Source of the DNA: a phage
DNA length: 64,000 nucleotides
Direction: 5' to 3' (one strand)
Sequence record: PQ400056.1
A program made the position numbers and the translations under genes. Numbering within the stretch: the stretch's first letter is position 1; the number at the start of each line of letters is the position of its first letter. Positions 9,760-64,000 of this stretch are shown one piece after another. The notes below the pieces were generated by a model. That model did no database searches. It saw nothing but the letters and a program-made list of their open reading frames with translations, and was not told where the DNA came from.

Positions 9760-9999
9760 ATGGTCTATAATATCGTCATTGGTGCTTTGTCTAATTTCGG
9801 AATGAAATTATTGTCAAAGTTAATTAGTGAAAAGATGCTCACTAAAATTTTCTTCTATTGCGCTCGTCGTCTTGCGGCCTATACCAATACGCCAATTGAT
9901 GATCGTTTCGTGGAAGAACTTTATAAGGAGTTTAATAAAGATCAGTCAGAAGATAGTAACGAGCAAGATAAACCTAGTGATAGTCAAGTACCTAAATAA
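9760..9999 (+). CDS. hypothetical protein (79 aa) in the position of gene 38
   Basis: ORF between gene 37 and holin t; no similarity to the T4 gp38 adhesin/chaperone recognised. Confidence 0.35.
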   Translation: MVYNIVIGALSNFGMKLLSKLISEKMLTKIFFYCARRLAAYTNTPIDDRFVEELYKEFNKDQSEDSNEQDKPSDSQVPK

Positions 10000-10032
10000 G
10001 AGTACACTGTCATAGTTATCTTAGGGCATTAT

Positions 10033-10973: not shown

Positions 10974-11302
10974 TCTGGAAACTTCCCGTAAATGTTCTCT
11001 GCTAACATACGCGCATCGCTAATGATATCTTTCATGCTATGACCGTAGTGTTCAGCCATTGAGTTGACACAATCAACAAAGAAATTATAACGGCGACGGT
11101 TTAAGATTTCTTCTCTGCTATAGTTTTCATATTTGACGGTCGAGTGTGCTTTCTCGATTGCCTTGATTGCTATATTGACTTCATTGATAATGGTTTTAGC
11201 ATTGTATGCGCCACGACGGATCAGGATATTTGTCAATTCTCTTGCAATATCTTGCAATTCTTCATATTCATGTTCAAACATAATCAACCTCTCAAAATAC
11301 AA
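10970..11302 (-). CDS. hypothetical protein (110 aa)
   Basis: ORF with stop-start overlap to neighbours in the minus-strand array. Confidence 0.5.
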   Translation of the reverse strand: MYFERLIMFEHEYEELQDIARELTNILIRRGAYNAKTIINEVNIAIKAIEKAHSTVKYENYSREEILNRRRYNFFVDCVNSMAEHYGHSMKDIISDARMLAENIYGKFPE

Positions 11303-25184: not shown

Positions 25185-25604
25185 TTAAATATCCTCCGCG
25201 ATATGCCGGAACAACTCCAGATCGTTTTTATCCAGAATGAAACCGCTACAATCAATAATCCCGTTACCGTAATTATCGGTTAACAGTCGTTCCGTTGCCA
25301 TGTATGCGCGTACTTTGTTGTTAAAATTCATTACATGTTGTGCATAGTCACAATGAATCTTTTGACGGTTCCACGCGACAATTGATTGTAGATGTATTAC
25401 ATTAGCCACATTATTAATAACAACCATATCAAAACCCTCGCTTAGTGGAATGTTCTGACATTTTATTGATACATACAGCTTGGTAGTCACGAGATTTTTT
25501 GACGAATTAAGAGCTACGGCCAAAAAATCCTGTAACTGTTCGTTTGTCATTGTTGGCTTACACCGCGTATCTAAACTCTTCTTTCTTCTAGCTTCATTAG
25601 CCAT
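25185..25604 (-). CDS. hypothetical protein (139 aa)
   Basis: minus-strand ORF; contains copy B of a 57-bp direct repeat (25425-25481). Confidence 0.4.
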   Translation of the reverse strand: MANEARRKKSLDTRCKPTMTNEQLQDFLAVALNSSKNLVTTKLYVSIKCQNIPLSEGFDMVVINNVANVIHLQSIVAWNRQKIHCDYAQHVMNFNNKVRAYMATERLLTDNYGNGIIDCSGFILDKNDLELFRHIAEDI

Positions 25605-25783: not shown

Positions 25784-27175
25784 TCAAATATAGTCTACTC
25801 GATACCTCGCACGGGTAACACCAACATATAATAACTGCATTGCCAATTCAAAGTCAACATTGTCTGTACACATGCAAGGAGTATACAGGAACACGCGGTC
25901 TACGCTGATCCCTTGTGACTTATGAATGGTGCAAGCTGGTAATGCTTTTACATTCAAGAACATACGCTTCATCGTCCAGAATGAATCCCAATCTGGTTTA
26001 AATTTTGGATTCTCTTTCTTCATTTCGCGATATTGTCCGGCAACCGTATTCAGATAGATAGAGAAAATGTTCTTCTGACGTTGTTCTGTCAGAATGTTGA
26101 TTTCTACCAAATCCGGTTTATCTGTAGTGATTCCGACTGTATCTAAACCGACTTTCTGATTTAGGATTTCTTTGTCTTCGTCATCATCGACGCTTTCCAC
26201 TTTCAGAGTATAGCCTAAAACTGGTTGCGGATCTACCCCCGTGCAACGTAATGTAAATTCGCGCGGTATAACCTCTTTAACTCGGATCATCTCACCATTG
26301 TTAAAAATAACATTGGGGATCTTCTTCCCGCGTTCATCTCGCAGATATTCGATCAATGGTTCCTGAGTAACCAGAATTTCATCTACAATCACTGGTTCAT
26401 CGGTGTTATAAACGCGCTTACGCACAATTTCATTGAGTTTTTCGACGCTCTTGTTAGTGTAGGCCAGAATACGGTTTTCTAGAAGGTCTTCCGGCGTTTT
26501 AACGGTTTCGAAATAATGCTTCATAAACTCCGGCAGAGTTGAGCTATGGAATACACCCTCGTTGCCGCACTGCTTTTCGAATACCCATTTACCATTACGG
26601 ACAGCGGTCGCCACATCAATTATTGGCGCATTAGATCGTTTAATCTCTGTAAGTTCTACATTCTGAAACCTTTCATCGGTGAAGAAAGGAGAGATCGACG
26701 TTGCACCGCTCGGATCAACTGGTCGTAACTGGTACAGATCACCCACGGCAATAATAACAATTCGACCGTTGATACTCTTCATGAGAATATCAAATAGTTT
26801 CTTATCGACCATACTCGCTTCATCAACAATGATGATCTGAACATCATCTAGCTTAGGAGTATCTTTTTGCTCAAATACTTGAGTATCTTCATAGTTGGTC
26901 GGGTTTAGTCGCAGTAGTGCATGTAAAGTAAATGCTTGACGACCTACCGCTTTACTCAAAACTTTTTTAGCCTGGTGGGTAGGCGTTGCCAAAACCACAC
27001 CAGTTACACCACGGCGGACCATTTCCTGAACAATGAATTTCATCATTGCGGTTTTACCAGTACCCGCCGCACCACGGACAGTTGTATGCTTCTTTTGTTC
27101 AATACGTTTCATTAGAACATCAAAAGCATGTTTTTGCCCGTCTGTTAACATATCGAAAGTTAATACTCTGCTCAT
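25784..27175 (-). CDS. dda: DNA helicase Dda (SF1)
   Basis: 463 aa; Walker A VRGAAGTGKT, then IIVDEASM, KRSNAPIIDVATAVRNGKW, YTPCMCTDNVDFELAMQLLYVGVTRARYRVDYI match remembered T4 Dda. Confidence 0.92.
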   Translation of the reverse strand: MSRVLTFDMLTDGQKHAFDVLMKRIEQKKHTTVRGAAGTGKTAMMKFIVQEMVRRGVTGVVLATPTHQAKKVLSKAVGRQAFTLHALLRLNPTNYEDTQVFEQKDTPKLDDVQIIIVDEASMVDKKLFDILMKSINGRIVIIAVGDLYQLRPVDPSGATSISPFFTDERFQNVELTEIKRSNAPIIDVATAVRNGKWVFEKQCGNEGVFHSSTLPEFMKHYFETVKTPEDLLENRILAYTNKSVEKLNEIVRKRVYNTDEPVIVDEILVTQEPLIEYLRDERGKKIPNVIFNNGEMIRVKEVIPREFTLRCTGVDPQPVLGYTLKVESVDDDEDKEILNQKVGLDTVGITTDKPDLVEINILTEQRQKNIFSIYLNTVAGQYREMKKENPKFKPDWDSFWTMKRMFLNVKALPACTIHKSQGISVDRVFLYTPCMCTDNVDFELAMQLLYVGVTRARYRVDYI

Positions 27176-27489
27176 TATCCTAAAATCCTCACCTTGCGAA
27201 CACAGATAGTATTGAGTTCTCGCCGTACCCGTTCTTTTTCATATTCAGGAATTTTATATTCGATACCATCCCGAACAATTTCAGAAGACCGGATTATGCC
27301 AAATTTTCGTTTAGGTACAACCTTGTATTTCGGTTCACCAGCCAATAGACTCTCACAATAATCTATCTGATCACACATTGACGCTAACGCAGCATCATGT
27401 GTTTCGCAAGTTAGGACGCGACCTTTCGCGTCCACTGAGTATTGAAAGAATCCGTCTTTATCACGATAACATACAGCAAATACATGCAT
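27175..27489 (-). CDS. hypothetical protein (104 aa), dda.1 position
   Basis: ORF with ATG/stop overlap to dda. Confidence 0.5.
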   Translation of the reverse strand: MHVFAVCYRDKDGFFQYSVDAKGRVLTCETHDAALASMCDQIDYCESLLAGEPKYKVVPKRKFGIIRSSEIVRDGIEYKIPEYEKERVRRELNTICVRKVRILG

Positions 27490-28244
27490 TATAAACCTAC
27501 CTTCGCTTTCATCAATTCAATCCACGACGCATCAATCGGAAGCCCGTATTTCACGCGTTCTTTTTGTGCTGGCGTTAAGTTCTCATACTTAGAAAGAGAT
27601 TCAATCAAAACGCTGGTATATTTTAGCACGATTTCGGTATTGTTTGCAATAGCCTTAAGTTTTTCTTCTTTCTTGTTGATTTCGCTAAGGGCTTGCTTGA
27701 GATCTGCAATTTTCTGATAACGTTCTTCCATACGGAAGAGAGTATTTTTAATCGCTCGCTCGGCTGCCTCTGCTTTCTCCGGTTCGTTGTGCTTTTTATG
27801 GCGCTCGATTGCTAATTTCTTTTCTTCGATTGCCATTTCCTGATTTTTGATGCGATTCTCGTTAAGTTCGATCCACTCGATGTACTTCGCACGTAGGGCA
27901 ATTTCATCATCAGAAAGTTTACCGTTAGTTCCTAGTTCCTGGATCTCTTTAAGAGATTCGATAGTGTGATTGCCACGGAAAGAATTGTATTTCAGTTTAA
28001 CCGGAATTACATTGCCATCAACATATCCCAGATTGCAATCAATGCGCTCTAAGGAGAGTCCGTCATCACCTTCACCGAAAGCCTCACCTGAATAGGCACA
28101 ATGAGTCTGACGGTAAATGTTACGAACAGTGACTAAGCTCATAGAGAAGTCTTTGTTGCGACGTGAAGCACCAGCCATGATAGAGTTCAGCCGGAAAACA
28201 ACCAGCGCCAATTCTTCGTTAGATTTAAAAGCAAACAGTTTCAT
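27489..28244 (-). CDS. hypothetical protein (251 aa), in the position and size of T4 Srd
   Basis: position after dda and size resemble T4 srd; CAYSGEAF...LSLERID..NLGY..GNV stretch of unclear affinity; coiled-coil C-terminus; assignment is tentative. Confidence 0.4.
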   Translation of the reverse strand: MKLFAFKSNEELALVVFRLNSIMAGASRRNKDFSMSLVTVRNIYRQTHCAYSGEAFGEGDDGLSLERIDCNLGYVDGNVIPVKLKYNSFRGNHTIESLKEIQELGTNGKLSDDEIALRAKYIEWIELNENRIKNQEMAIEEKKLAIERHKKHNEPEKAEAAERAIKNTLFRMEERYQKIADLKQALSEINKKEEKLKAIANNTEIVLKYTSVLIESLSKYENLTPAQKERVKYGLPIDASWIELMKAKVGL

Positions 28245-28305
28245 AATTGATTCTCCTTAGTTGGTATGTGTGTATTATTGTCTATCTGGTTTGTGCTGTC
28301 AACAC

Positions 28306-28809
28306 TTAAATTAAAGAAAATTTGTAAATCTCTATCAGATCGCCGTTACACGCGTAAACTTCCTCGATCTCATCAAGGATCATGGTCGTCCCTGTCTTGT
28401 ATATGCACTCGCGCTCATCTGCCAACATAGCATACAAAGACAGTCGAGTAGTCGGATTGTCATACTCTTTAGACACCACTCGGTCAATAGCATGTTCGTA
28501 ATAATTCATGCAAGGCTTGGTAGGTTTTATTGCAATAATCTTTCCTGTTGCATAAACATCGGTTGCAAAGTCCTCTGCTGTTGATTGTAGTGGCGTAAAG
28601 CTCATAGGACGCTCTACAACGAAAGAATCACCCACAATTAAGGTATCCAGCTTACGGCCTTCTCTTTTGCTCACACCGCGATACAAGGCTTCATGATGCA
28701 CTAACCGCTCAGTCTTTTCAATCAATCCATTAAGGATCGACATATCGATATTTTCTTTAGAGTTCATCACTTCATCAATGATGTTAAGTTCTTCTGGTGT
28801 AAATTGCAT
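28306..28809 (-). CDS. putative ADP-ribosyltransferase-like protein (ModA/ModB position)
   Basis: 167 aa; spacing of YRG ... QST ... ERE resembles the R / S-T / E-x-E arrangement of ADP-ribosyltransferases; between the Srd-like gene and gene 56 as in T4. Confidence 0.4.
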   Translation of the reverse strand: MQFTPEELNIIDEVMNSKENIDMSILNGLIEKTERLVHHEALYRGVSKREGRKLDTLIVGDSFVVERPMSFTPLQSTAEDFATDVYATGKIIAIKPTKPCMNYYEHAIDRVVSKEYDNPTTRLSLYAMLADERECIYKTGTTMILDEIEEVYACNGDLIEIYKFSLI

Positions 28810-28842
28810 AATAAAAAAGCCTCCAATCTTTCGACGGGAGGC

Positions 28843-28872
28843 ATAATAAAACCATTATAGAGTAGTGTCAAC
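28843..28872 (-). promoter_or_regulatory. early promoter GTTGAC, 18 nt, TATTAT followed by an SD-containing hairpin
   Basis: minus-strand GTTGAC (28872-28867), TATTAT (28848-28843); hairpin GCCTCC / GGAGGC (28819-28841) includes the SD for ATG 28809. Confidence 0.45.
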
Positions 28873-28878
28873 TAATTT

Positions 28879-29397
28879 TTAGTAGCCGCGTTCTTGACGG
28901 GCGAAGTTTTCAGCATTTTTCAGATAGTACAGAATAAAGAGTTCTTGAGCGTCAATACCCAGCGGGATCATCTTTGACAGAATGAAGTGGATCGCGTCCA
29001 CAAATTCAAATTTCACTTCAAGCTGATCTTCCGGTGACAGTTCAGAGAATTTACGCGCTCGCGCTTCTCCGTGGTTCTTTTTCCACATTTTCCAGATTGC
29101 ACTTGCATCTTTACCATTGGACATTCCACCCAGCGATGTGTAAAGCTCTCGTGTTTCGTCTGCGATAGCGTCATCCATCCGTTGCATCCAATCCAGCATT
29201 TCACCGCAAGTCTCTAGCTTAGTTGGATTTGGGACCCAATCAAATTTTTCGGATAATGCAACCTGCAAACCAGTTTGCATTTCGAGCATCACCTGAAACG
29301 GATCTTTACCTTCTGCAATAGCGTGATGATATGCGGCGATAGCCGCGTTAATATCTTTTTCGTTAACCAGACCAGCACAAGAATTAAATTCTGACAT
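28879..29397 (-). CDS. 56: dCTP pyrophosphatase gp56 (MazG-like)
   Basis: DPFQVMLEMQ, KLETCGEMLDWM, SPEDQLEVKFEFVDAIHFIL, YYLKNAENFARQERGY closely match remembered T4 gp56; track start is GTG, ATG at 29397. Confidence 0.88.
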   Translation of the reverse strand: MSEFNSCAGLVNEKDINAAIAAYHHAIAEGKDPFQVMLEMQTGLQVALSEKFDWVPNPTKLETCGEMLDWMQRMDDAIADETRELYTSLGGMSNGKDASAIWKMWKKNHGEARARKFSELSPEDQLEVKFEFVDAIHFILSKMIPLGIDAQELFILYYLKNAENFARQERGY

Positions 29398-50463: not shown

Positions 50464-50964
50464 TTAACCGATTTTATCAAGTTCGTTTAATGCTTTCTCT
50501 GCTTCCTGTATAGCTTGCACTCTTTCCGGCATTTTGTCAAGAAAATCTTTCAACTCTTCAAAACTGGAGATATGACGCAAGGCATTAGCACCGATAGCCG
50601 CATGTGATTTGCATTCAAAGCGAATTTTATAATTATCCATCGCCAATTTGAGAAGGTCTATTAGATCATATTCATGACCAGGCAATAAAACTTCTTTGAA
50701 GCACGCTCGGTCGCCATCGGAAAACCATATATTATCACCAACATCGATAGAACTAATATAATCCCCTTCGTGATTATAGATTGAACGTACATTACCCCAA
50801 CGGTCTACCGTAGCGACAGTAAATGGTTTATCTAGATATGTAAACACACCATCAATATTAGGTTTTTGTTCGTAACGCCAACAATCACGCAAAATGCGCT
50901 TTTCGTCCTCACCAACCAACTTATATGTCTTCCCTTCTTCCCATTTCATAATATCATCTCTCAT
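50464..50964 (-). CDS. paralogous-family protein, member 3
   Basis: 166 aa; MKWEEGKTYKL ... DRACFKEV plus coiled-coil C-terminus. Confidence 0.55.
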   Translation of the reverse strand: MRDDIMKWEEGKTYKLVGEDEKRILRDCWRYEQKPNIDGVFTYLDKPFTVATVDRWGNVRSIYNHEGDYISSIDVGDNIWFSDGDRACFKEVLLPGHEYDLIDLLKLAMDNYKIRFECKSHAAIGANALRHISSFEELKDFLDKMPERVQAIQEAEKALNELDKIG

Positions 50965-52213: not shown

Positions 52214-52741
52214 TTATTTTAAATTTTTTCGAATGTAGTCAGACCATTCCTTCCCTGTCAGTTCGGTCCCATTCTGGAAACTGAAATATTCATACGGCAT
52301 CGAGTCAAGATAAAACAGGATCATACATCGCGCCATATAATACCAATCACGATTAAAGTAAACTACGTTATCGCCAGTACCATCAGCACCTTTATCATAA
52401 CCATCGCGGGTACGGGCGACCCATTGAATAGTATCATTTTTCTCACGGATCGTAACAGGTTCCCAATATCCAGCACATCCAGCATGACCACACGAACAAG
52501 TAATGAAATATTGTCCTTTTGCTTTGTTGTCATCCCATTCACGATGGATTGGTTCGATCTCGTGAAACAGTGCTAAGCAATCATGATTATGCAACACTGG
52601 CTTACCATCAATCAATGCATGGAATGTATACAAACGACCCGTAGACAAATAGCTATCCTCACGCTCAACCAGTTCAATAGCAATCTTTTTAGCTCGTTCT
52701 TTGTGTCGTTGTGCTTTACGCTTACGGTTTAATGATTTCAT
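52214..52741 (-). CDS. hypothetical Cys/His-rich protein (175 aa)
   Basis: basic N-terminus MKSLNRKRKAQRHKERAKK; HNHDCLALFHEIEPIHREW and CSCGHAGCAGYW suggest metal binding; ATG 52741 with GAGGTGA SD. Confidence 0.5.
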   Translation of the reverse strand: MKSLNRKRKAQRHKERAKKIAIELVEREDSYLSTGRLYTFHALIDGKPVLHNHDCLALFHEIEPIHREWDDNKAKGQYFITCSCGHAGCAGYWEPVTIREKNDTIQWVARTRDGYDKGADGTGDNVVYFNRDWYYMARCMILFYLDSMPYEYFSFQNGTELTGKEWSDYIRKNLK

Positions 52742-52758
52742 ATTCACCTCACACATTA

Positions 52759-53298
52759 TCAAAGGTCGCGATATAGTACATTATGAAAATGAGAACTTGC
52801 ATTACCAATATTGTAGATAATAAATTCTTCATCCGGCGCTTGCGCTACAAATTGAGTATGAGCAACCGCCACAACCTTAAAAATACGATCCGTGATCTTG
52901 TGTTTAATTTCTGCCCCTACTTCCATAGGAACATATTCATTTGTTTCTGTTTCAGTCGCAAAACAGCCATCTTCTTCATAAGCACGAACAAATCGATCGC
53001 AATCAGTACGCTTAACAAATTCAAGAGTATACAATTCTCGTGAATTGTCGGTATAGACCAATACAGAATTATTATGATAGCGAATCACATACAGGTTATT
53101 ATCATCGTCAATTACGCAAAAGCTACGGATTCCTTCGCCTTTACTCCAGCAGATATTAACCACCGTTCCTCTAATAAAAAAACTTTCCTTTAAATTAAAA
53201 CTAGTCAATGTGCTAGCGTGCATTTTAACAACAACACCATCGCCAATTTCCAGTTTACGAAGTTTAACTTCTTTGTTCAGTACACAAAACATCATCAT
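52759..53298 (-). CDS. hypothetical protein (179 aa)
   Basis: first gene after the nrdD terminator-promoter pair; ATG 53298 with GAGAGG SD. Confidence 0.5.
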   Translation of the reverse strand: MMMFCVLNKEVKLRKLEIGDGVVVKMHASTLTSFNLKESFFIRGTVVNICWSKGEGIRSFCVIDDDNNLYVIRYHNNSVLVYTDNSRELYTLEFVKRTDCDRFVRAYEEDGCFATETETNEYVPMEVGAEIKHKITDRIFKVVAVAHTQFVAQAPDEEFIIYNIGNASSHFHNVLYRDL

Positions 53299-53327
53299 GT
53301 TGTCCTCTCGTTGTTTTCGATGTGAGC

Positions 53328-53355
53328 ATTATACATTAGCTAATCATGTTGTCAA
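53328..53355 (-). promoter_or_regulatory. consensus sigma70-type promoter TTGACA, 16 nt, TATAAT
   Basis: minus-strand TTGACA (53355-53350), TATAAT (53333-53328); mirrored on the plus strand at 56596-56623 in the inverted copy. Confidence 0.6.
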
Positions 53356-53361
53356 CACCCC

Positions 53362-53393
53362 AAAACGAAAAAGCCGACCCTTTCGGATCGGCT
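53362..53393 (-). terminator. rho-independent terminator after nrdD
   Basis: minus-strand AGCCGATCCGAAAGGGTCGGCT followed by TTTTCGTTTT. Confidence 0.6.
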
Positions 53394-53398
53394 GAAAT

Positions 53399-55262
53399 TT
53401 ACATGTGCTTAACGCGGTTTACCATCTCGGAGTGTTTCCCGTGGTTGAATGGACGCAGATCAACAGATCCAAGATATCCACTAACGCGACGGATAACATT
53501 CATCTTTTCCAGATTGTCATTACCGCAATCAGGACAAACAAAACCAGACTCGGTCGCTCTCATTTCCTTAGTAGATCCGCATACATGACATACATCAGAA
53601 GGAGTATTAACACCGAAGTAGTGCAATTTATCCATTGCATAGTCTACTACAGTTTCAAGACCTTTCAGGTTGTTTTTCATGTCTGGGAACTCAACATAAG
53701 AGATCATGCCACCGGACGCCAGCCAGTGATAATCTTTCTCAAAGTCAATTTTCTCAAATGGAGTGACTTTCCGGTCTACGTCAAGGTGGAATGAGTTGGT
53801 GTACCAGTCTTTATCGGTAGCACCCTTAACAATACCAAATTGCTCTCGGTCCAGTCGATTAAATCGATAGCAAAGGCTCTCGGCTGGAGTACCGTAAAGA
53901 CTAAACCCAAGTCCGGTTTCGTCCTTCCATTTTTCAGTATAATGACGCAAGATCTTAAGAATATGTTTACCGTATCGCTGCGCATCTTCCGAATCAAACG
54001 GATGAACACCAAACAGGACGCTCAATACCTCATGTAAACCAATATATCCAAGAGAGATACTAGCGCGACCATCTTTCAACACTTCCAAAATTTCATCGTT
54101 TTGATGAATACGGAAAAACGCACCTTCGGTATACAGCACCGGAGCAACATTGGCTTTAGCCCCTTTTAAAGCGTCTACGCGACTCATGAGCGCATCAAAG
54201 CAAATAGGCATACGATTGGCTAGCTCTTGTTCGAATAGCTCAATTCTGCGCATTACAGACGCTTTACCAGCACGACGCGCGGCAATAAGGGCAATACGCG
54301 GAAGATTCAGGGTCACAACACCCAAGTTATTACGTCCGTCTAATACTTCTTCTCCTTTCTCATTATGCCACACACCCAGGAAGCTACGACAACCCATCGG
54401 GCTAACCGGAACACTAGATCCGGTGATACTACGGTTATTCTTCGCAGAGATATAATCAGGGTAAAGACGCTTACTAGAACATTCCAATGCAAGTTGCTTA
54501 ATGTCGTAGTTCGGATCTTCCGGTTTAAGGTTTAATCCTTCTTCTAAGAACATCACCAGCTTAGGAAACACCGGAGTGATACCATCTTTACCTAAACCTT
54601 TAGTTCGAACGTTCAGGATCGCTTTCTGAATCAGTTTTTTCTTCCCAGCTAGTACCCATACCAAAGGTTAAAGTCACAAAAGGCGTTTGACCGTTGGTGG
54701 AGAACAAAGTGTTGATTTCATATTCCAACGCCTGATATCCGTCTAACGTTTCTTTTTCTGTTTTCTCTTGTGCATAGAGAGTATCAGCTTTGATTCCGTA
54801 GGTTTCGGCATCAGCAAGGTGTTTATAATATGTTTTCTCAACATACGGTGCTAACACCTGATCGATGTTTGCGATTGTGGTCCCGCCATATTGATGACTT
54901 GCCACCTGTGCGATAATTTGAGCGGTTACAGCACAAGCAACGCCGATTGATTTCGGACTTTCGATTTGTGCGCTACCCAATTTAAAACCATTCTCTAACA
55001 TGTCTTTGAGATTAACAAGACAGCAGTTAGTAAACGGCATAGCGGGTGCATAATCCATATCATGATAATGAATGTCACCGTCTACATGCGCTTTATAGAT
55101 GTGCTCAGGTAACACGGTTTTAGCAATCTGTTTAGACACAGCACCAGCAATCAGATCTCGACGTGTCGGGAATGTTCGCGCGTCTTTGTTCGCGTTCTCT
55201 TTGCTTACTTCGTTTTCTTTACCCGTTGCGATCTCTGTAATGTCTTTGATTAGTTTTTCCAT
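53399..55262 (-). pseudogene. nrdD: anaerobic ribonucleotide reductase NrdD, interrupted by a 1-nt frameshift in an A6 run
   Basis: N-terminal ORF 54600-55262 (ENANKDARTFPTRRDL, FTNCCLVNLKDMLENGFKLG, TFGMGTSW) and C-terminal ORF 53399-54664 (LIQKAILNVRTKGLGKDGITPVFPKLV ... C-terminal CPDCG zinc ribbon) match remembered T4 NrdD; frames join if the A run at 54635-54640 (minus strand) is 5 nt; no intron. Confidence 0.85.
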
Positions 55263-55404: not shown

Positions 55405-57721
55405 TAGAAGAAGGATTAAACCTTAAACCGGAAGATCCGAACTACGACATTAAGCAACTTGCATTGGAATGTTCTAGTAAGCGTCTTTACCCTGATTATA
55501 TCTCTGCGAAGAATAACCGTAGTATCACCGGATCTAGTGTTCCGGTTAGCCCGATGGGTTGTCGTAGCTTCCTGGGTGTGTGGCATAATGAGAAAGGAGA
55601 AGAAGTATTAGACGGACGTAATAACTTGGGTGTTGTGACCCTGAATCTTCCGCGTATTGCCCTTATTGCCGCGCGTCGTGCTGGTAAAGCGTCTGTAATG
55701 CGCAGAATTGAGCTATTCGAACAAGAGCTAGCCAATCGTATGCCTATTTGCTTTGATGCGCTCATGAGTCGCGTAGACGCTTTAAAAGGGGCTAAAGCCA
55801 ATGTTGCTCCGGTGCTGTATACCGAAGGTGCGTTTTTCCGTATTCATCAAAACGATGAAATTTTGGAAGTGTTGAAAGATGGTCGCGCTAGTATCTCTCT
55901 TGGATATATTGGTTTACATGAGGTATTGAGCGTCCTGTTTGGTGTTCATCCGTTTGATTCGGAAGATGCGCAGCGATACGGTAAACATATTCTTAAGATC
56001 TTGCGTCATTATACTGAAAAATGGAAGGACGAAACCGGACTTGGGTTTAGTCTTTACGGTACTCCAGCCGAGAGCCTTTGCTATCGATTTAATCGACTGG
56101 ACCGAGAGCAATTTGGTATTGTTAAGGGTGCTACCGATAAAGACTGGTACACCAACTCATTCCACCTTGACGTAGACCGGAAAGTCACTCCATTTGAGAA
56201 AATTGACTTTGAGAAAGATTATCACTGGCTGGCGTCCGGTGGCATGATCTCTTATGTTGAGTTCCCAGACATGAAAAACAACCTGAAAGGTCTTGAAACT
56301 GTAGTAGACTATGCAATGGATAAATTGCACTACTTCGGTGTTAATACTCCTTCTGATGTATGTCATGTATGCGGATCTACTAAGGAAATGAGAGCGACCG
56401 AGTCTGGTTTTGTTTGTCCTGATTGCGGTAATGACAATCTGGAAAAGATGAATGTTATCCGTCGCGTTAGTGGATATCTTGGATCTGTTGATCTGCGTCC
56501 ATTCAACCACGGGAAACACTCCGAGATGGTAAACCGCGTTAAGCACATGTAAATTTCAGCCGATCCGAAAGGGTCGGCTTTTTCGTTTTGGGGTGTTGAC
56601 AACATGATTAGCTAATGTATAATGCTCACATCGAAAACAACGAGAGGACAACATGATGATGTTTTGTGTACTGAACAAAGAAGTTAAACTTCGTAAACTG
56701 GAAATTGGCGATGGTGTTGTTGTTAAAATGCACGCTAGCACATTGACTAGTTTTAATTTAAAGGAAAGTTTTTTTATTAGAGGAACGGTGGTTAATATCT
56801 GCTGGAGTAAAGGCGAAGGAATCCGTAGCTTTTGCGTAATTGACGATGATAATAACCTGTATGTGATTCGCTATCATAATAATTCTGTATTGGTCTATAC
56901 CGACAATTCACGAGAATTGTATACTCTTGAATTTGTTAAGCGTACTGATTGCGATCGATTTGTTCGTGCTTATGAAGAAGATGGCTGTTTTGCGACTGAA
57001 ACAGAAACAAATGAATATGTTCCTATGGAAGTAGGGGCAGAAATTAAACACAAGATCACGGATCGTATTTTTAAGGTTGTGGCGGTTGCTCATACTCAAT
57101 TTGTAGCGCAAGCGCCGGATGAAGAATTTATTATCTACAATATTGGTAATGCAAGTTCTCATTTTCATAATGTACTATATCGCGACCTTTGATAATGTGT
57201 GAGGTGAATATGAAATCATTAAACCGTAAGCGTAAAGCACAACGACACAAAGAACGAGCTAAAAAGATTGCTATTGAACTGGTTGAGCGTGAGGATAGCT
57301 ATTTGTCTACGGGTCGTTTGTATACATTCCATGCATTGATTGATGGTAAGCCAGTGTTGCATAATCATGATTGCTTAGCACTGTTTCACGAGATCGAACC
57401 AATCCATCGTGAATGGGATGACAACAAAGCAAAAGGACAATATTTCATTACTTGTTCGTGTGGTCATGCTGGATGTGCTGGATATTGGGAACCTGTTACG
57501 ATCCGTGAGAAAAATGATACTATTCAATGGGTCGCCCGTACCCGCGATGGTTATGATAAAGGTGCTGATGGTACTGGCGATAACGTAGTTTACTTTAATC
57601 GTGATTGGTATTATATGGCGCGATGTATGATCCTGTTTTATCTTGACTCGATGCCGTATGAATATTTCAGTTTCCAGAATGGGACCGAACTGACAGGGAA
57701 GGAATGGTCTGACTACATTCG
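55405..57721. repeat. inverted repeat arm 2: inverted duplicate of nrdD 3' part, terminator, promoter and two ORFs
   Basis: track ORFs 55464-56552, 56653-57192 and 57189-57800 duplicate the 53399-54664, 52759-53298 and 52214-52762 products; the last acquires a different C-terminus past the repeat boundary at 57721. Confidence 0.9.
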
Positions 57722-57800
57722 CCATCTGATGGTTGCTTTTAGTGATTGCCGACAGCATCCGGGGAAGTACAATAATAAATGGGAATTGATGACCTGTTAA

Positions 57801-58060
57801 GACCTGATTTATTGGGGTAAATTTTAGGTGAAATCACTGTATAAAAAATTAAAGGGGCTGAGGATATAAATAAAATAAAATGGAGAGCCAAAGAGTCTCA
57901 GGGAACCTCCAGAAAAAAAGGGGAGGGGGGGGGGGAGAGAGTATTTATTAGTGGGTGTGGCTGTCGGGGAATTTTTATGAGGGGAATTGATGGTTCAAAT
58001 TGATTAAAAAGATGGGCTGCATATAAAAAGGGATCGGGAAAAAATATCTAAAACAGTAAC
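57801..58060. other. purine-rich low-complexity bridge with no coding capacity (probable chimeric junction)
   Basis: strong A/G bias with very few C, G run of 11 at 57925-57935, GGGGAGAGAG-type strings; separates AT-rich phage sequence from GC-rich P2-like sequence. Confidence 0.6.
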
Positions 58061-58166
58061 TCATCCAAGCATCACACATCACTATGCCGACACAGAAGAC
58101 ACCGTGCTGGAAATTCAGCGGCTGGCTACCGTCTGCCGCGACACCCTGAATGGCATGACGAAGTAA
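58061..58166 (+). other. 3' fragment of a truncated upstream ORF of the P2-like replication region
   Basis: open frame ...HPSITHHYADTEDTVLEIQRLATVCRDTLNGMTK ending 7 nt before the gene A start; 5' part absent. Confidence 0.3.
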
Positions 58167-58172
58167 ATCACT

Positions 58173-60938
58173 ATGACGGCAGAGCACATCAGGGACTGGC
58201 AACAACCGCGCCACGCAGTGGGGCGTGAAGGAACGGGGATCCCCGCTCCTGAATCCGCGCTTTCCTCCTGGCTGGATGCCTACCGGGCAGAGAACGAGCG
58301 CCGCAAGGAAATGGCTGATGCGGCGTTCTCCGCCACGCCGCTGGGCAACCTGATTAATAAAAGCCTGGACGCACAGGAAAAACAGGACAAAACCATCACA
58401 CTGGCAGGAGACGCCAGAAAACAGGCACGCGGCGCAGTGGATGAAGCCATGGCCTCGCTGCGCCTGCTGCCGTCCTATCTGCGCGATCCGCTTATTCGCC
58501 ACCTCTCCTTCCTGCGCAAAAAACAGGAAGCCGATCGCCGGAAAGGCAAAAAGAGCTGGCAGGCGGAACGCTATGCACGCGGAACCCTGCGCAAAATATT
58601 CGAACGTCTGGACCGCACCGATCACCGCTGGCTGACACCGGGTTATCGCTCCCTTGCCGGACGCGAACGCCTGGACGATTTGCTTTACCTGCCGCAGCTC
58701 AACAAACACCAGATACAGACGCTGGCCACCATGACGGCGGCGATGTTCAGCAGCACCTTCGAAAAACTCTGCGATGGCTTTGGCGCGACCGATGGCGAGC
58801 TGACCATGGATGTAACGCTGAAGGCGTATCAGATGCTGGCCCGCATGGCGTTACACCTGCACGCCATGCCTCCACATTATGACGCACTGACAACAGACAA
58901 AGACCGGAGGAACGAACCAGACACGGAGCTGCTGCCGGGCGCAATCCTTCGCCTGACCTGTGCGGAATGGTGGAAACGCAAACTGTGGCTGTTACGTTGC
59001 GAGTGGCGGGAAGAACAACTCCGCGCCGCCTGTCTGGTTTCCAGAAAAACATCGCCCTATCTGAGCCAGGACGCGTTAAGCGAGTTTCGCGCACAGCGCG
59101 AGAAAACACGCGATTTCCTGAAAAGTTTCATGCTGGAAAATGAAGACGGGTTCACGATTGATCTCGAGACGGTGTATTACGCGGGAGTAAGTAACCCGGT
59201 TCACCGTAAGGCAGAAATGATGGCCACCATGAAGGGACTGGAACTTCTGGCCGAAGCCCGTGGCGACAGAGCGGTGTTTCTGACCGTCACCTGCCCGTCA
59301 AAATACCACGCAACAACGGAGAACGGTCATCCGAACCCCAAATGGAACGGGGCCACCATGCGCGACTCCAGCGATTACCTGGTTAACACGTTTTTTGCGG
59401 CGGTCCGCAAAAAACTGAACCGCGACGGCCTGCGCTGGTATGGCATCCGCACGGTGGAGCCTCACCATGACGGCACTGTGCACTGGCATATGATGGTCTT
59501 TGCACATCCGGACGAGATTGAAACCATCGTGTCCCACGTCTGCGATATTGCCATTCAGGAGGACCGCCACGAGCTGGGCGATGACATAACTCCGCGTTTT
59601 AAGGCGGAGTATGTCGACGGCTCAAAAGGCACACCAACCAGCTACATCGCCACCTACATCGGAAAGAACCTGGACAGCCGCGCCGTGGATGGCATCGACC
59701 CGAAAACGGGCAAGCCACGCGTTGACCACGAAACCGGAAAATCAATGGCCGAGAGCGTGGAGCGCGCCATCGGCTGGGCGCGCCTTCACCGGGTCCGTCA
59801 GTTCCAGTTCTTTGGCATCCCCTCCCGTCAGGTGTGGCGTGAACTGCGCCGCCTTGCCAGCCAGATGGCACGCAATCCGGAAGGCCCGCAACGGCTGAAA
59901 GATGATGCAATGGATGCGGTACTCGCTGCCGCCGATGCCGGGTGTTTTGCCACCTACATTGAAAAACAGGGTGGCGTGCTTGTTCCACGCAAGGACTACC
60001 TGATTCGCACCGCCTACGACCTCGCAGATGAGCTGAACGATTACGGCGAACAGAGCGTACAGATTTACGGGATCTGGTCACCACTCATCGGGGAATCCTC
60101 CCGTGTGTGCACGCATCCGGATAACTGGAAATTGGTAAGACGTAAACCAGAACCAGAAGACAACGCCCACGAAAATGGTTTTGACCTTCAGGGCGGCCCT
60201 GCCGCCCCTTGGACTCGTGGCAATAACTGTCCCCGTGTACAGGAAACAGGCAACAGCGGGACAGAACAGTCGGAAGAACGGCCAGCACCGTGGCCGCAGC
60301 TTCCTGACGGCGTTGATGTGGATGAATGGATGCGCTCACTGAAACGGCACGAACGCCGGGCGCTGATGCGTTCGCTGCGTGACAAACAGGCAAAAAACAA
60401 CAGTGATGAAATGCAGAACTGGACACAGAGCCGCAAACAGCCGCGGCCTTTGCCTGATAACCACGAGTTACTCGCTAAAGAATGGCGGGAGTCTGCCGAA
60501 TCTCTCGGCCTGCATATCGGTGAACAACAGATGCTGCACCTGTTACGGGGCGGCAGTCTGTACGTTGACGGCAGCATCATTGCGCCGCAGGGATATGAAA
60601 TTGTATGTAAACCGGATACCCGACCGGACAGCCGAATCACGCAACTCTGGCAGCGCCTGAGTCGTAATCACAGCGTAAACAGCACGGAAATCCGCCATAA
60701 CCCGGTTTCCAGCTATCTGAAACAGCTCGGGGCATCAGACCCAGAAGCCGCCGCACGCCTGGCATCCACAATTCAGCAGGACCAGAACACCATGAAAACT
60801 CCCGTTACCGTGCTTTCTGACATGCTGCGCGCCATCCGTGACGCAGAGCACGCACAGAGAATCAATGAAACCACTGAACGCGCACGTCACAAGGCGGGTC
60901 TGTTGCAGGGCAAAGGCAATAGCGAGAAGAAAAAATAA
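58173..60938 (+). CDS. A: P2-type replication initiation protein A (HUH rolling-circle endonuclease)
   Basis: 921 aa, GC-rich; HUH motif VHWHMMVF and dual-tyrosine motif YIATYIGKN typical of the P2/186 gpA family; minus-strand track ORFs inside it are judged spurious. Confidence 0.85.
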   Translation: MTAEHIRDWQQPRHAVGREGTGIPAPESALSSWLDAYRAENERRKEMADAAFSATPLGNLINKSLDAQEKQDKTITLAGDARKQARGAVDEAMASLRLLPSYLRDPLIRHLSFLRKKQEADRRKGKKSWQAERYARGTLRKIFERLDRTDHRWLTPGYRSLAGRERLDDLLYLPQLNKHQIQTLATMTAAMFSSTFEKLCDGFGATDGELTMDVTLKAYQMLARMALHLHAMPPHYDALTTDKDRRNEPDTELLPGAILRLTCAEWWKRKLWLLRCEWREEQLRAACLVSRKTSPYLSQDALSEFRAQREKTRDFLKSFMLENEDGFTIDLETVYYAGVSNPVHRKAEMMATMKGLELLAEARGDRAVFLTVTCPSKYHATTENGHPNPKWNGATMRDSSDYLVNTFFAAVRKKLNRDGLRWYGIRTVEPHHDGTVHWHMMVFAHPDEIETIVSHVCDIAIQEDRHELGDDITPRFKAEYVDGSKGTPTSYIATYIGKNLDSRAVDGIDPKTGKPRVDHETGKSMAESVERAIGWARLHRVRQFQFFGIPSRQVWRELRRLASQMARNPEGPQRLKDDAMDAVLAAADAGCFATYIEKQGGVLVPRKDYLIRTAYDLADELNDYGEQSVQIYGIWSPLIGESSRVCTHPDNWKLVRRKPEPEDNAHENGFDLQGGPAAPWTRGNNCPRVQETGNSGTEQSEERPAPWPQLPDGVDVDEWMRSLKRHERRALMRSLRDKQAKNNSDEMQNWTQSRKQPRPLPDNHELLAKEWRESAESLGLHIGEQQMLHLLRGGSLYVDGSIIAPQGYEIVCKPDTRPDSRITQLWQRLSRNHSVNSTEIRHNPVSSYLKQLGASDPEAAARLASTIQQDQNTMKTPVTVLSDMLRAIRDAEHAQRINETTERARHKAGLLQGKGNSEKKK

Positions 60939-61118
60939 CCAAGAAAGAAATCATCAATTGTATGAAGGTAGAGTTTAGACATGGTAAGGACGTTCCATGA
61001 GGCACACTGTAATTTCATATAGTATTCCTCTTCCCTGTTTGATAAAAAAGTGCAATACTATAAATAGTCCAGTTAAATGTTTTTTCAATTCACTTAAAAT
61101 CAAGAGGTTACAGTTAAG

Positions 61119-62240
61119 ATGGGCGACTTAGGTGGTATTCAGTCAGATTTAGCCCAACTAGTTAGACTGGTAATAACTGAACAGTATGATGACGTTCGGT
61201 TATATGTCGCTCGCTTGGTGCGTAAATATCGGGAAACTATGCCTGCTCTATCCGAGCAGCTTGATCTTTATCTACGAAATAAACCGCAAAAGCCTGCACA
61301 AAGCCTGCGTAAGGTTACCGCACCAAAACAAGCGCTGCCTCAAACCATGCCTGTGGACGAGGAGTCAAGGCTTACCTTGCTTAAAGCACCAAATGAAAAG
61401 ATTGTGAGCAAACCTCTACTGTCCAGTCAGATAGAAGACTCACTGGATCAAATTATTCTTGAGCGGAAGCACATCGATCGCCTCAAGACTCTCGGCTTAC
61501 AACCAACACGCTCTGCCATTTTTGTTGGCCCTCCGGGTGTAGGTAAAACACTTACGGCAAGCTGGTTAGCTCAGAAATTAGGGGTTCCTTTTTACGTTCT
61601 TGATTTAACGGCAGTAATGAGCAGCTATCTGGGCAAAAGCGGAAATAACCTTCGGGCAGCTCTAGATTTTGCGAAGAAAGGGCCGTGCGTTCTTCTGTTA
61701 GATGAAATTGATTCAATCGCCAAAAAGAGAAGTGATGATTCTGATGTTGGAGAATTAAAAAGACTTGTTACCGTAATACTCCAGGAGGTTGACGAATGGC
61801 CGTCTTCTAGTTTGCTACTTGCTGCAACTAACTTCGCTGAGTTGATTGATCCAGCACTATGGAGACGTTTTGATTTAGTGCTCAATTTTGAGAAGCCAGA
61901 TAGCGAAAGTATTAAAGAAGCAATTAAACGCTTTTCAGGTCCCGACTACGCGATTTTTGCACGTTGGATAGATCTACTGGCTATTATGTTCAAAAATGAA
62001 TCTTTTAGTAATATTGAGCGTTCTATCAACAAATTCCGACGTTCGGTCGCTTTAGGTATTTCCTCAGATGAAGAGTTGATTGGGTCGTTCATTAAAGATG
62101 GTTTATCAGAATTAGACAGGAATGAACGTAAAGAAATTGCAGTTACTCTAAAAAGAAATTCTAAATTATCCCAGCATGCCATATCAGACTTAACCGGAGT
62201 CAGTAGGGATACAATTAGAAAATACAGTCAAAAAATGTAA
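61119..62240 (+). CDS. AAA+ ATPase (373 aa), candidate defence-module component
   Basis: Walker A GPPGVGKT, Walker B VLLLDEID, sensor-1 LLLAATN, arginine-finger region PALWRRFD; AAGAGG SD; AT-rich island directly downstream of GC-rich gene A. Confidence 0.85.
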   Translation: MGDLGGIQSDLAQLVRLVITEQYDDVRLYVARLVRKYRETMPALSEQLDLYLRNKPQKPAQSLRKVTAPKQALPQTMPVDEESRLTLLKAPNEKIVSKPLLSSQIEDSLDQIILERKHIDRLKTLGLQPTRSAIFVGPPGVGKTLTASWLAQKLGVPFYVLDLTAVMSSYLGKSGNNLRAALDFAKKGPCVLLLDEIDSIAKKRSDDSDVGELKRLVTVILQEVDEWPSSSLLLAATNFAELIDPALWRRFDLVLNFEKPDSESIKEAIKRFSGPDYAIFARWIDLLAIMFKNESFSNIERSINKFRRSVALGISSDEELIGSFIKDGLSELDRNERKEIAVTLKRNSKLSQHAISDLTGVSRDTIRKYSQKM

Positions 62241-62263
62241 TACAGCATAGATAAGGAGTATGT

Positions 62264-62521
62264 ATGGCGAAAACTAATTTTCTGATTGGACGCGGCGAAT
62301 TATTAACCAGCGATATTCCTGGTCCTAAAAGAGTGCCCGGAAAAGCTGAGGTTTATTCTCTTTACGAATCGAAACAACGTTTATTGCCGCAAATTGCATC
62401 TACTATAGAAAATTTTGATGATTTACCCAGTCAGGCATGTCCTTATGATTATGCTGTGGCTAAGTTGACGTTGAATCCGAGCTATATTGCACGCTCTTTT
62501 TTTTCCTGCAAAAATGCTTAA
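62264..62521 (+). CDS. small ORF (85 aa), possibly the frameshifted N-terminus of the downstream subtilase
   Basis: strong AAGGAG SD; ends 3' of a T8 run (62497-62504); removing one T fuses it in frame to the subtilase ORF. Confidence 0.45.
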   Translation: MAKTNFLIGRGELLTSDIPGPKRVPGKAEVYSLYESKQRLLPQIASTIENFDDLPSQACPYDYAVAKLTLNPSYIARSFFSCKNA

Positions 62522-64000
62522 GTCTACCGGGTTAACGTCTATTGGCAGCAGGACGGTAAAAATTACGCCTCAAAGCTGGAAGCGAAAAGTTACTGTGTCA
62601 GAAGTAACTACGACACAAATGTTTGTTGCTGGTAAAAGAGAATCCTTCAAAGAGTTACCTCATTGGGTGTCAGGACTCAAAGAGTTTTCTGACGAAGCGA
62701 TTGATTTTGCACGCATAGAACGGTTCGATGCCTATTTACCCGAAGAGCGTATTATTACCATTGGTGAGCAGGATTCTTCGTATTTTGAGGTTGGTGTTCA
62801 TTTACTGCCAGATAATGAACAAGACTTGGTTCAGCAACAATTTGTTCAGTTTGCATCAAATTTGAACATCAAAGTACATACTTCATTAGCTTTTACCGCT
62901 GGTACATTATGGTTCGTGCCAATCCAGGCCGATAGAATTACTATTAGTAAGCTTGCGAAATTTACATTTGTACGAGTAATAAGACCGGTTCCAAGATTGC
63001 GTGGGATTAGACCAATACAAAGGAACTACGGTCCTTTAGCTCAGTGTAAATTGCCTGCTGAGGGCCCCGTATCTTCAGAAATAAAAGTTGCGATTCTTGA
63101 TGGTGGTTTACCATCAGAGCACGCTATATCGCCATGGTTAAAATCCTATAGAGTTTTGGACGATCATGCAGAGGATGATCCAGACGGTTTAGAGCATGGT
63201 TTAGCTGTGTCTTCAGCCTTTTTATTTGGACCAATAAGTAATAAATCGGAAGCGAAAAGACCATACTCTTATATTGATAACTTAAGAGTTTTGGACAACA
63301 AGACCTGCCAAGAAGATCCGCTGGAACTATATCGAACTTTGGGCTTTATTGAAGAGGTATTGTTGTCTCGCCAGTATCAGTTTATCAATCTAAGTTTAGG
63401 TCCAGACCTACCAATTGAAGATACGGAAGTTCATGCATGGACTTCCGTTATTGATGATTTGTTAAGTGATGGTGAAACATTAATGACTGTTGCTGTTGGC
63501 AACAATGGAGAAATGGATCGCAAGTCTGGTAATGCAAGAATTCAAGTACCAGCCGATTGCGTTAATGCTCTTGCTGTTGGTGCTTGTGATACAGTTAATG
63601 ATACGGAATGGAAACGAGCACCATATAGCGCCATTGGGCCAGGCAGAAGTCCTGGCGTGATGAAACCGGATTTAGTTGCGTTTGGTGGTGACACAGACGA
63701 GTACTTTCATGTTTTAGGTAAAGGTAAGAAGCCTGTAATCATACCCCAGCTAGGAACAAGCTTTGCCTCTCCTTACGCCTTACGAGCAGCTGTTGGTGTT
63801 CGGGCAATTTTAGGGAACGATTTGAGCCTACTAGCAATCAAAGCTTTGTTAATTCATGCGTCAAAACAGCTTGATCATCCTTGTACAGAAGTTGGCTGGG
63901 GAAAACTTCCTGAAGACTTGAACGACATTATAGTCAGCCCTGATGGTGTTGCCCCGCTCGGAAGGTTACACAAACCCTGGACAAGGTCTCGTGGGCTCGG
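62514..64000 (+). CDS. subtilisin-like serine protease (peptidase S8), partial at window end
   Basis: catalytic motifs in D-H-S order: VAILDGG, LEHGLAV, VAVGNNGE (oxyanion Asn), GTSFASPY; ORF remains open to 64000; no SD before its own ATG. Confidence 0.8.
   Translation, partial: MLKSTGLTSIGSRTVKITPQSWKRKVTVSEVTTTQMFVAGKRESFKELPHWVSGLKEFSDEAIDFARIERFDAYLPEERIITIGEQDSSYFEVGVHLLPDNEQDLVQQQFVQFASNLNIKVHTSLAFTAGTLWFVPIQADRITISKLAKFTFVRVIRPVPRLRGIRPIQRNYGPLAQCKLPAEGPVSSEIKVAILDGGLPSEHAISPWLKSYRVLDDHAEDDPDGLEHGLAVSSAFLFGPISNKSEAKRPYSYIDNLRVLDNKTCQEDPLELYRTLGFIEEVLLSRQYQFINLSLGPDLPIEDTEVHAWTSVIDDLLSDGETLMTVAVGNNGEMDRKSGNARIQVPADCVNALAVGACDTVNDTEWKRAPYSAIGPGRSPGVMKPDLVAFGGDTDEYFHVLGKGKKPVIIPQLGTSFASPYALRAAVGVRAILGNDLSLLAIKALLIHASKQLDHPCTEVGWGKLPEDLNDIIVSPDGVAPLGRLHKPWTRSRGL

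Follow-up and report, generated by a model that had tools for sequence, protein, structure and literature searches.

The 64,000-nt stretch of phage DNA analysed here (PQ400056.1, hereafter the window) ends with a P2-type replication gene A followed by genes for an AAA+ ATPase and a subtilisin-like (S8) peptidase. This arrangement raises the questions of what the pair is and whether it belongs to the phage in whose record it stands. We consider it highly probable, taking all parts of the reading together, that the pair at 61119-63954 is the already known IetAS system in one broken copy, that the system acts by the mechanism proposed below, and that the junctions around it are artefactual.

Composition of the window

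An earlier note, made from the letters alone, had placed the pair in a P2 genome. The surroundings turned out to be different: everything left of 58062 is T4-like Krischvirus sequence, followed by a fold-back and degraded sequence (Table 1). Over its last 9 kb, the window is a patchwork in which a fold-back, a degraded linker, a piece of host prophage and one more breakpoint follow each other. Therefore, synteny- or integrity-based claims about this region are unsafe; examples are a "P2 prophage", "three ORFs" and a module "truncated by the window end".

Table 1. Features of the window, with positions counted from its first nucleotide
Feature	Position	Strand	Description
Krischvirus (RB49/T4-like) genome	1-55387		
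Fold-back	55405..57721	.	Perfect reverse-complement copy of window 52230-54546
Degraded linker	57722..58061	.	340 nt, C-poor, G-runs
P88-type (Xuanwuvirus, P2-like) E. coli prophage fragment	58062..63954	.	5.9 kb
P2-type replication gene A	58173..60938	+	921 aa; PF05840 Phage_GPA 1.7e-129
AT-rich intergenic region, presumed promoter region of ietA	60939..61118	+	Single sigma-70-like match 61039-61068
ietA, AAA+ ATPase, putative antitoxin/regulator component	61119..62240	+	373 aa; PADLOC IetA 1e-77
ietS, S8 subtilase, putative toxin/effector	62264..63954	+	Codons 1-563 of 741; frame broken at 62497
T-run with one extra T	62489..62497	+	T8 here, T7 in 11/11 reference loci
IetS D279	63087-63107	+	Catalytic residue, in VAILDGG
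IetS H311	63189-63209	+	Catalytic residue, in LEHG
IetS N413	63495-63512	+	Catalytic residue, in VGNNGE
IetS S499	63753-63773	+	Catalytic residue, in GTSFASP
Tail	63955..64000	.	46 nt unlike reference ietS continuation; further breakpoint

Specifically, the fold-back contains the 3' part of the Krischvirus nrdD gene and two small genes. Its inverted repeat measures 2317 nt, is 100% complementary and has an 858-nt spacer between the arms, and both arms map onto one single-copy interval in phage kaaroe. Near the fold-back, at 54640, the phage nrdD gene is also broken by one additional T in a T-run. Part of the linker (A121, G98, T86 and C35) copies the nrdG region of the phage itself, with many indels and an alignment score of 52 compared with 15 ± 2 in shuffles. 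Additionally, the linker holds a 20-nt exact island of prophage sequence, and a CATCC microhomology is present there.

The prophage fragment begins 111 nt before gene A and stops inside ietS. It aligned to E. coli UMNK88 (NC_017641) over 5893 nt with 0 mismatches and 2 indels; the source of the UMNK88 prophage is a porcine ETEC. When the 46-nt tail was aligned as a degraded continuation of ietS, the score (7) was no better than the shuffle mean (6.3), and the last 56 nt gave only chance 24-nt matches in E. coli genomes. The junction at 63941-63979, searched as an exact pattern, had 0 matches in viral, genome and metagenome collections. Altogether, five breakpoints lie inside 9 kb, and every one of them cuts a gene.

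Because of this anatomy, namely the fold-back, the degraded linker and the abrupt breakpoints, the joining of the prophage fragment to Krischvirus appears to be an artefact, most likely of host-DNA contamination and chimeric assembly, rather than biology. Alternatively, the physical link might be genuine, with a virulent phage or a defective or transducing particle carrying a host P88-type piece with gene A and ietAS. Krischvirus sequence does lie on the same molecule, the lack of substitutions relative to the porcine ETEC prophage is what recent capture from the propagation host would produce, and the 20-nt island and the CATCC microhomology could suggest template switching. However, a perfect fold-back of single-copy phage DNA, a linker that is C-depleted, rich in G-runs and riddled with indels, and the clustering of five gene-cutting breakpoints all argue against it, as does an ietS gene that is both frameshifted and truncated. 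Moreover, the junction is shared by no public contig in the collections above, and ietAS DNA of this kind was absent from the 50,697 phage records examined. A genuine link is thus very improbable. If it were true, a lytic phage, or a particle derived from one, would have gained a replication gene foreign to it, together with a defence cassette, from an enterotoxigenic E. coli host.

Gene A and ietA

Gene A, annotated in UMNK88 as replication endonuclease WP_000123142, anchors the gpA-gpQ cargo hotspot on its left side. The sharp drop in composition that had been noticed behind it was borne out, with a GC content of 0.55-0.60 along the gene and 0.37-0.47 beyond. The AT-rich region that follows is presumed to hold the promoter of ietA; the count of sigma-70-like matches in it was not above chance, and promoter and terminator scans near ietA and 3' of ietS likewise stayed at chance level.

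IetA shares 100% identity with E. coli WP_000502620 and matched the PADLOC model PDLC02196 over nearly its full length (protein 9-372, profile 5-370 of 374). A Pfam search placed it among the classical AAA proteins (PF00004, 2.6e-30), in agreement with the motifs from which a classical AAA+ ATPase had first been proposed: Walker A GPPGVGKT (aa 137-144, K143), Walker B LLLDEID (192-198, D195/E196), LLLAATN (232-238, sensor-1 N238) and RRFD, which lies in WRRFD (248-252, R249/R250). The stretch DPALWRRFD aligns to DPALxRxGRFD, and the pore loop Y170-L171-G172 aligns to KYYG/KWVG/MWFG of VAT and Cdc48. The IetA sequence has the marks of classical-clade AAA+ unfoldases of the Cdc48/VAT/Rpt/FtsH type (PF00004, pore loop 1 and Arg fingers), and a PDB sequence search with it returned Cdc48/p97-type AAA domains. 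Because the aromatic pore loop and the arginine fingers are intact, IetA may well form a hexameric protein unfoldase. Additionally, a C-terminal helix-turn-helix at about aa 339-370, with weak matches to HTH_11/HTH_23, might link IetA to DNA, for autoregulation or sensing.

A TRIP13/Pch2 remodeller, a CBASS accessory, was considered as another identity and rejected: TRIP13 scored just 2e-15 compared with 1e-77 for IetA, and ietA is flanked by gene A and an S8 peptidase gene instead of HORMA/CD-NTase genes.

Damage in ietS

Three ORFs, including a separate one of 85 aa between the ATPase and the subtilase, had been listed in the earlier note. This small ORF dissolved on comparison with the reference: the first 80 residues encoded at 62264-62521 equal residues 1-80 of the reference IetS, from the rest of which the extra T at 62497 separates them, and the true count is two genes. 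The reference loci, 11 of 11, encode IetS in one uninterrupted ORF of 741 aa. The Peptidase_S8 frame runs from about 62505 (PF00082, 9.7e-20), and once one T is removed, the translation agrees with WP_001140702 at 563 of 563 residues. The PADLOC IetS model matched the part in the window at 2.5e-36 (profile 98-562 of 749) and the intact reference protein at 6.7e-52 (profile 38-733 of 749). The description of a subtilase with an intact Asp/His/Asn/Ser set was correct: all four motifs were found, and D279, H311, N413 and S499 are invariant across 47 homologues.

The module had also been described as simply cut by the end of the window, whereas identity to the reference already ends 46 nt earlier, in codon 563. 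The window copy lacks the last 178 codons (564-741) in addition to carrying a +1 frameshift at codon 80; its two genes are not both complete and in frame, whereas the reference copies, such as the UMNK88 cassette at 1028717-1032156 of NC_017641, are intact. Because ietS is frameshifted and truncated, the copy is non-functional; judged from its sequence, it cannot work.

The extra T could be a true mutation; ietS of the source strain would then be a pseudogene, or a phase-variable gene prone to slippage. Within the 5.9 kb there is no other internal difference from the reference, and homopolymer runs are natural indel hotspots. Yet the run is T7 in all 11 reference loci, each with an intact 741-aa IetS, a second T-run with one T too many lies in the phage nrdD gene, and the neighbouring sequence is visibly poor in quality, so that a true mutation is improbable.

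An AlphaFold model of IetS had a mean pLDDT of 57 (below 50 in the catalytic core) and suggests with low confidence a pro-subtilisin-like layout, in which N-terminal ferredoxin-like, propeptide-like domains would be followed by the S8 core and a C-terminal beta-jelly-roll. Its best Foldseek match was the Tk-SP pro-subtilisin of Thermococcus kodakaraensis (PDB 3afg; E 8.3e-7, the catalytic core being of low confidence), and other matches were ACT/ferredoxin-like and jelly-roll structures. The model shares with Tk-SP the order of an N-terminal propeptide-like part, the S8 core and the C-terminal beta-jelly-roll. Unlike IetS, Tk-SP is secreted and self-activating and has no ATPase partner, and the identity between the two is about 11%. 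A PDB sequence search with IetS gave generic subtilisins alone (E about 1e-4), and no solved structure of either IetA or IetS was found by such searches.

Identity and natural locus of the pair

The two genes are co-oriented with the ATPase gene first, and a 23-nt gap separates the ietA stop (62240) from the ietS start (62264). Both the ATPase motifs and the Asp/His/Ser triad are intact. Together with the PADLOC scores for IetA and IetS, these findings uphold the proposal of IetAS-like defence cargo downstream of a P2-type gene A. The NCBIfam anti-phage IteA and IteS models were the best matches for the two proteins and aligned end to end, with scores below the equivalog cut-offs for both IetA (NF042959, IteA_antiphage: 223 bits, cut-off 510) and IetS (NF042956, IteS_antiphage: 137 bits, cut-off 900). 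Since the scores are far below these cut-offs, the pair represents a diverged subfamily of the same family, which explains the generic RefSeq names and means that results obtained with other homologues might not hold for it.

Gene A (GPA), IetA (373 aa), IetS (741 aa) and portal follow one another in 10 of 10 public loci encoding an identical IetA, within P2-type prophages that occupy at least five chromosomal sites. In these reference loci, gene A and the portal gene flank a cassette of exactly two genes. The natural place of the cassette is the variable slot that separates gene A from portal gene Q in P88-type P2-like prophages of E. coli. The window keeps only the gene A side, and unrelated sequence replaces the portal side. 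The same slot holds ParM-type cargo in phage P88 and phage 520873. Among 5426 complete E. coli genomes, 44 carry the cassette and 1443 carry gene A, and this difference, along with the ParM-type cargo, bears out the variability of the hotspot that the first reading had put forward for checking. The exact IetA protein was found in about 5000 blocks of public assemblies. Meanwhile, a search of the 50,697 phage records for the same ietAS DNA found none. The cassette is known from prophages within bacterial genomes and not from sequenced P2-like virions of that collection. Outside P2, it occurs with the same gene layout in Nitrosomonas and Photorhabdus.

Alternatively, the ATPase and protease could serve housekeeping or belong to the P2 core, for example as a Lon-, FtsH- or Clp-like quality control system or a virion maturation protease. 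The AAA domain of IetA does resemble those of Cdc48, proteasomal ATPases and FtsH. However, the patchy distribution relative to the neighbouring gene A (44 of 5426 genomes compared with 1443) refutes a conserved P2 core or housekeeping pair, and the cassette is absent from phages P88 and 520873. In addition, housekeeping models scored far below their own cut-offs and below the IetA models, and the composition is atypical of the prophage. This agrees with the first impression that neither protein has an obvious housekeeping role in P2, and the probability of such a role is close to nil.

Comparison with known systems

The name IetAS has stood for a toxin-antitoxin system since 2009 and for a defence system since 2020, and the system is detected by standard tools. 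The closest known system is ietAS itself (DefenseFinder "Gao_Iet"; Gao et al. 2020) in the gpA-gpQ form of Rousset 2022, which has the identical protein pair, gene order, slot and anchor genes. In that work, an AAA/HTH_50 plus Peptidase_S8 system in the gpA-gpQ hotspot is labelled "ietAS", and Tables S5A/S5B list WP_000502620 and WP_001140702 among the hotspot loci of E. coli P2-like prophages. A literature search for these two accessions found them in no main text; they came up in the supplementary tables of Rousset 2022 alone. The exact pair at the exact prophage slot is thus already in a published hotspot catalogue, and nothing in its identity is new. Consequently, the IetAS part of the original proposal stands, whereas its description as a "candidate" system does not. 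The reference form shows no differences from the catalogued ietAS, whereas the window copy is +1 frameshifted and lacks codons 564-741 and the portal-side anchor.

The founding pair, IetA/IetS of the Agrobacterium tumefaciens pTiC58 type, likewise has the AAA ATPase gene directly upstream of the S8 peptidase gene. Its IetA is 35% identical to E. coli IetA across the AAA core (E 1e-41), and the IetS proteins of both match PADLOC IetS models. In contrast, E. coli IetA is 45 aa longer, with its C-terminal HTH, and IetS (741 aa in E. coli, 836 aa for pTi) has almost no pairwise similarity (E 0.01) and differs in the best PADLOC sub-model (PDLC02197 in E. coli, PDLC02198 for pTi). The location also differs: the E. 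coli pair lies in a prophage hotspot and the Agrobacterium pair on a plasmid. The helicase-containing variant ietHAS (Liu-DS4; PMC13069673) has the ATPase and S8 protease core in common with the E. coli cassette; its protease is needed for defence, and its ietA acts as antitoxin. Unlike the E. coli cassette, it includes an SNF2 helicase gene.

Proposed mechanism and role

Based on literature on homologues and on the motifs, IetAS is most likely a toxin protease checked by an AAA+ antitoxin. IetS, a subtilisin-type serine protease, would be the toxic effector, and IetA, a classical-clade AAA+ ATPase, would hold it harmless while hydrolysing ATP. A phage-encoded cue, sensed directly or indirectly, would lift this restraint, and the freed IetS would degrade cellular or phage proteins. 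The infected cell would then halt growth or die ahead of phage maturation (abortive infection). In PMC13069673 (NAR 2026), the protease was the toxin and the ATPase the antitoxin, the protease site was required for defence, and an ietA mutant was not clonable. Moreover, a Bacillus IetAS homologue, triggered by a single phage protein, has been shown to cause abortive infection.

A possible though unlikely alternative is that prophage ietAS mainly stabilises its prophage by addiction (post-segregational killing), with defence secondary or weak. According to papers citing Yamamoto et al. 2009, IetAS was first found as a toxin-antitoxin system for stability and incompatibility of pTiC58. IetS/IetA are a toxin-antitoxin pair on both pTiC58 and SGI1, and a homologue stabilises SGI1. 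Additionally, plasmid-partition genes occupy the gpA-gpQ slot in about a quarter of P2-like prophages (Rousset 2022), and an E. coli ietAS from ECOR52, which may or may not be the same allele, gave limited protection by itself. However, defence and abortive infection have been demonstrated for homologues, and the slot is a documented defence hotspot with old/tin, retrons and restriction enzymes (Rousset 2022). The two roles are also compatible and not mutually exclusive.

The very common P88-type allele of E. coli, present in the roughly 5000 assembly blocks mentioned above, would offer a convenient model in which to study the IetAS mechanism, including the restraint of the subtilase, its trigger and its substrates.

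Identity of the ATPase and subtilase genes

The earlier note had described three co-oriented ORFs, encoding an AAA+ ATPase, an 85-aa product and a subtilase, behind a sharp compositional drop after a P2-type gene A. The composition step was reproduced (GC 0.55-0.60 over gene A, then 0.37-0.47 downstream). Both Pfam domains were recovered together with the ATPase motifs, and D279, H311, N413 and S499 of IetS sit in the subtilase motifs quoted there (VAILDGG, LEHG, VGNNGE and GTSFASP). The count of three ORFs did not hold. In the reference, the P2-like, P88-type prophage of E. coli UMNK88 (NC_017641), the S8 peptidase gene begins 23 nt past the end of the ATPase gene, and its product has 741 aa. 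The 85-aa ORF is split off IetS because of one extra T in the T-run at 62489-62497 (T8 in the window versus T7 in 11 of 11 reference loci). Removing one T joins the ietS frames, so that two genes are present, and the 85-aa ORF is ruled out as a separate gene. With this correction, IetS was identical to WP_001140702 at 563/563 residues, and IetA was 100% identical to WP_000502620.

Features of the window, with positions or residues and supporting matches
Feature	Position or residues	Match or content
Krischvirus genes	1-55387	long tail fibre genes, rIIA/rIIB, topoisomerase, DNA polymerase, gp46/47-type endonucleases, sigma gp55
Gene A, 921 aa	58173-60938	Phage_GPA 1.7e-129
ietA, 373 aa, classical AAA ATPase	61119-62240	PF00004 2.6e-30
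IetA Walker A	K143	GPPGVGKT
IetA pore loop	Y170	SYLGKS
IetA Walker B	D195/E196	LLLDEID
IetA motif	N238	LLLAATN
IetA motif	R249/R250	WRRFD
IetA helix-turn-helix	residues 339-370	weak matches
85-aa ORF	62264-62521	identical to residues 1-80 of reference 741-aa IetS
Peptidase_S8 frame	from ~62505 to window end	9.7e-20

The proposal that the pair is IetAS-like was supported by PADLOC, which matched window IetA over the full profile (1e-77), the partial window IetS at 2.5e-36 and the intact reference IetS at 6.7e-52 (profile 38-733 of 749). The NCBIfam anti-phage IteA and IteS families were the top matches, aligned end to end. Their scores were far under the equivalog cut-offs (223 versus 510 bits for IetA and 137 versus 900 bits for IetS), which explains the generic RefSeq names of the pair; judged by these scores, the E. 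coli pair is a diverged subfamily. The founding Agrobacterium Ti-plasmid pair shares its gene order with E. coli ietAS; the two IetA proteins are 35% identical (1e-41), and the IetS proteins are related at profile level only. Cassettes of the same make-up (AAA of 373-376 aa, 23-nt gap, S8 of 738-741 aa) were found outside P2 contexts in Nitrosomonas and Photorhabdus, and IetS homologues sharing 65-77% identity occur widely among Proteobacteria.

The natural locus

An index search found the exact IetA protein in 4998 blocks of public assemblies. All ten places read showed the order integrase, C, Cox, further early genes, gene A, IetA, IetS, portal and terminase, with the prophage inserted at no fewer than five different places in the chromosome, in agreement with the suggestion of defence cargo downstream of gene A. 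The expected hotspot variability was also observed: ietAS was present at >=99.5% identity in 44 of 5426 complete E. coli genomes, versus 1443 for the neighbouring gene A, and a ParM-like and partition-protein pair fills the slot in phages P88 (8856-10131 of its locus) and 520873 (8952-10227). This fits the plasmid-partition genes reported at this slot in about a quarter of P2-like prophages (Rousset et al. 2022). The same study defined the gpA-gpQ hotspot (18,150 loci, 1,650 arrangements), where P2's own cargo is old and tin. Its Table S5A contains the entry 'AAA/HTH_50 + Peptidase_S8: WP_000502620 + WP_001140702', and Table S5B names this hotspot system 'ietAS (Gao et al, 2020)'. Additionally, 35 porcine ETEC strains were reported with ietAS, and E. 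coli ietAS has been noted as prophage-borne. Therefore, ietAS at the gpA-gpQ hotspot is already known in every respect. The UMNK88 prophage carrying it is probably defective, because an IS3-family transposase (27139-29090 of that locus) interrupts a virion morphogenesis gene.

Possible mechanism of IetAS

The best PDB matches of IetA were Cdc48, VAT and p97, and we infer that it is a classical-clade AAA+ protein. IetA probably threads a polypeptide, because an aromatic-hydrophobic-glycine pore loop and Arg fingers are retained; the obvious candidate client is IetS itself. The C-terminal helix-turn-helix suggests autoregulation or DNA association. The low-confidence IetS model (mean pLDDT 57) is reliable only for residues 30-240 and for parts of 560-730. 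Its best match, Tk-SP pro-subtilisin, and further matches to tandem ferredoxin/ACT-like and jelly-roll folds hint that IetS may consist of propeptide-like domains followed by an S8 core and a beta-jelly-roll.

On pTiC58 and SGI1, IetS acts as the toxin, with IetA as its antitoxin. Prophage addiction is compatible with defence as a second function, but is unlikely to be the main role of ietAS. Work on homologues has shown that defence needs the protease active site, that an ietA mutant was not clonable, and that the phenotype is abortive infection; in a Bacillus system, expression of one phage protein sets off toxicity. An E. coli ietAS by itself gave weak protection and acted in synergy with Zorya II against T3. 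In our working model, ATP-driven engagement by IetA would hold IetS inactive, a phage cue would block or divert IetA, and freed IetS would degrade essential proteins, aborting infection; the details of this model could equally well prove right or wrong.

A probably chimeric tail in the phage record

The earlier note had placed the pair in a P2 genome. Window positions 1-55387 are instead collinear with phage kaaroe (Krischvirus; RB49-like, T4-type) and relatives at 96.5-99% identity, and the main prophage match occupies 58062-63954. Four intervals (7648-9362, 11096-11302, 25482-25600 and 50664-50922) gave no high-stringency alignment to kaaroe; the first is the distal tail-fibre subunit, where the mismatch probably reflects host-range variation. 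An extra T at 54640 (T6 versus T5 in kaaroe) splits nrdD, encoding anaerobic ribonucleotide reductase, into ORFs 53399-54664 and 54600-55262, a second homopolymer frameshift, near the chimeric region.

The segment 55405-57721 is a perfect reverse complement of 52230-54546 (2317 nt, 858-nt spacer). It holds the 3' part of nrdD plus two small ORFs, and both arms map to one single-copy kaaroe interval. T4-type genomes are not known to have such inverted repeats, so the fold-back looks artefactual, arising from a chimeric read or from the assembly. The following 340-nt linker (57722-58061) is C-poor, with G-runs such as ggggagggggggggggagagag, and has CATCC repeated at both edges. Within this linker, 57771-57892 repeats the nrdG region of the same phage with many indels and a shift in register of about 340 nt (alignment score 52; shuffles 15 +/- 2). 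A 20-nt stretch identical to the UMNK88 prophage, GTGATTGCCGACAGCATCCG, lies at ~57741-57760, 300 nt before the main match. That match, 58062-63954, has no mismatches and two indels, and runs from mid-ORF upstream of gene A to IetS codon 563. An AA insertion at 58067-58068, 5 nt inside its left edge, would fit sequence of low quality around this junction. The module is thus not simply cut by the window end, as had been supposed: the last 46 nt (63955-64000) have no match in the ietS continuation, in Krischvirus or in the complete E. coli genomes, and mark a further breakpoint.

Five breakpoints, the fold-back, degraded sequence and homopolymer indels in the last 9 kb point to a chimeric, low-quality assembly tail in which host DNA is a contaminant. 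By comparison, a genuine recombinant is much less likely, indeed very improbable. The junction at the window end (63941-63979) was not found in viral, genome or metagenome collections. The use of this analysis is as a warning that the region from 55.4 to 64 kb is a chimeric patchwork.
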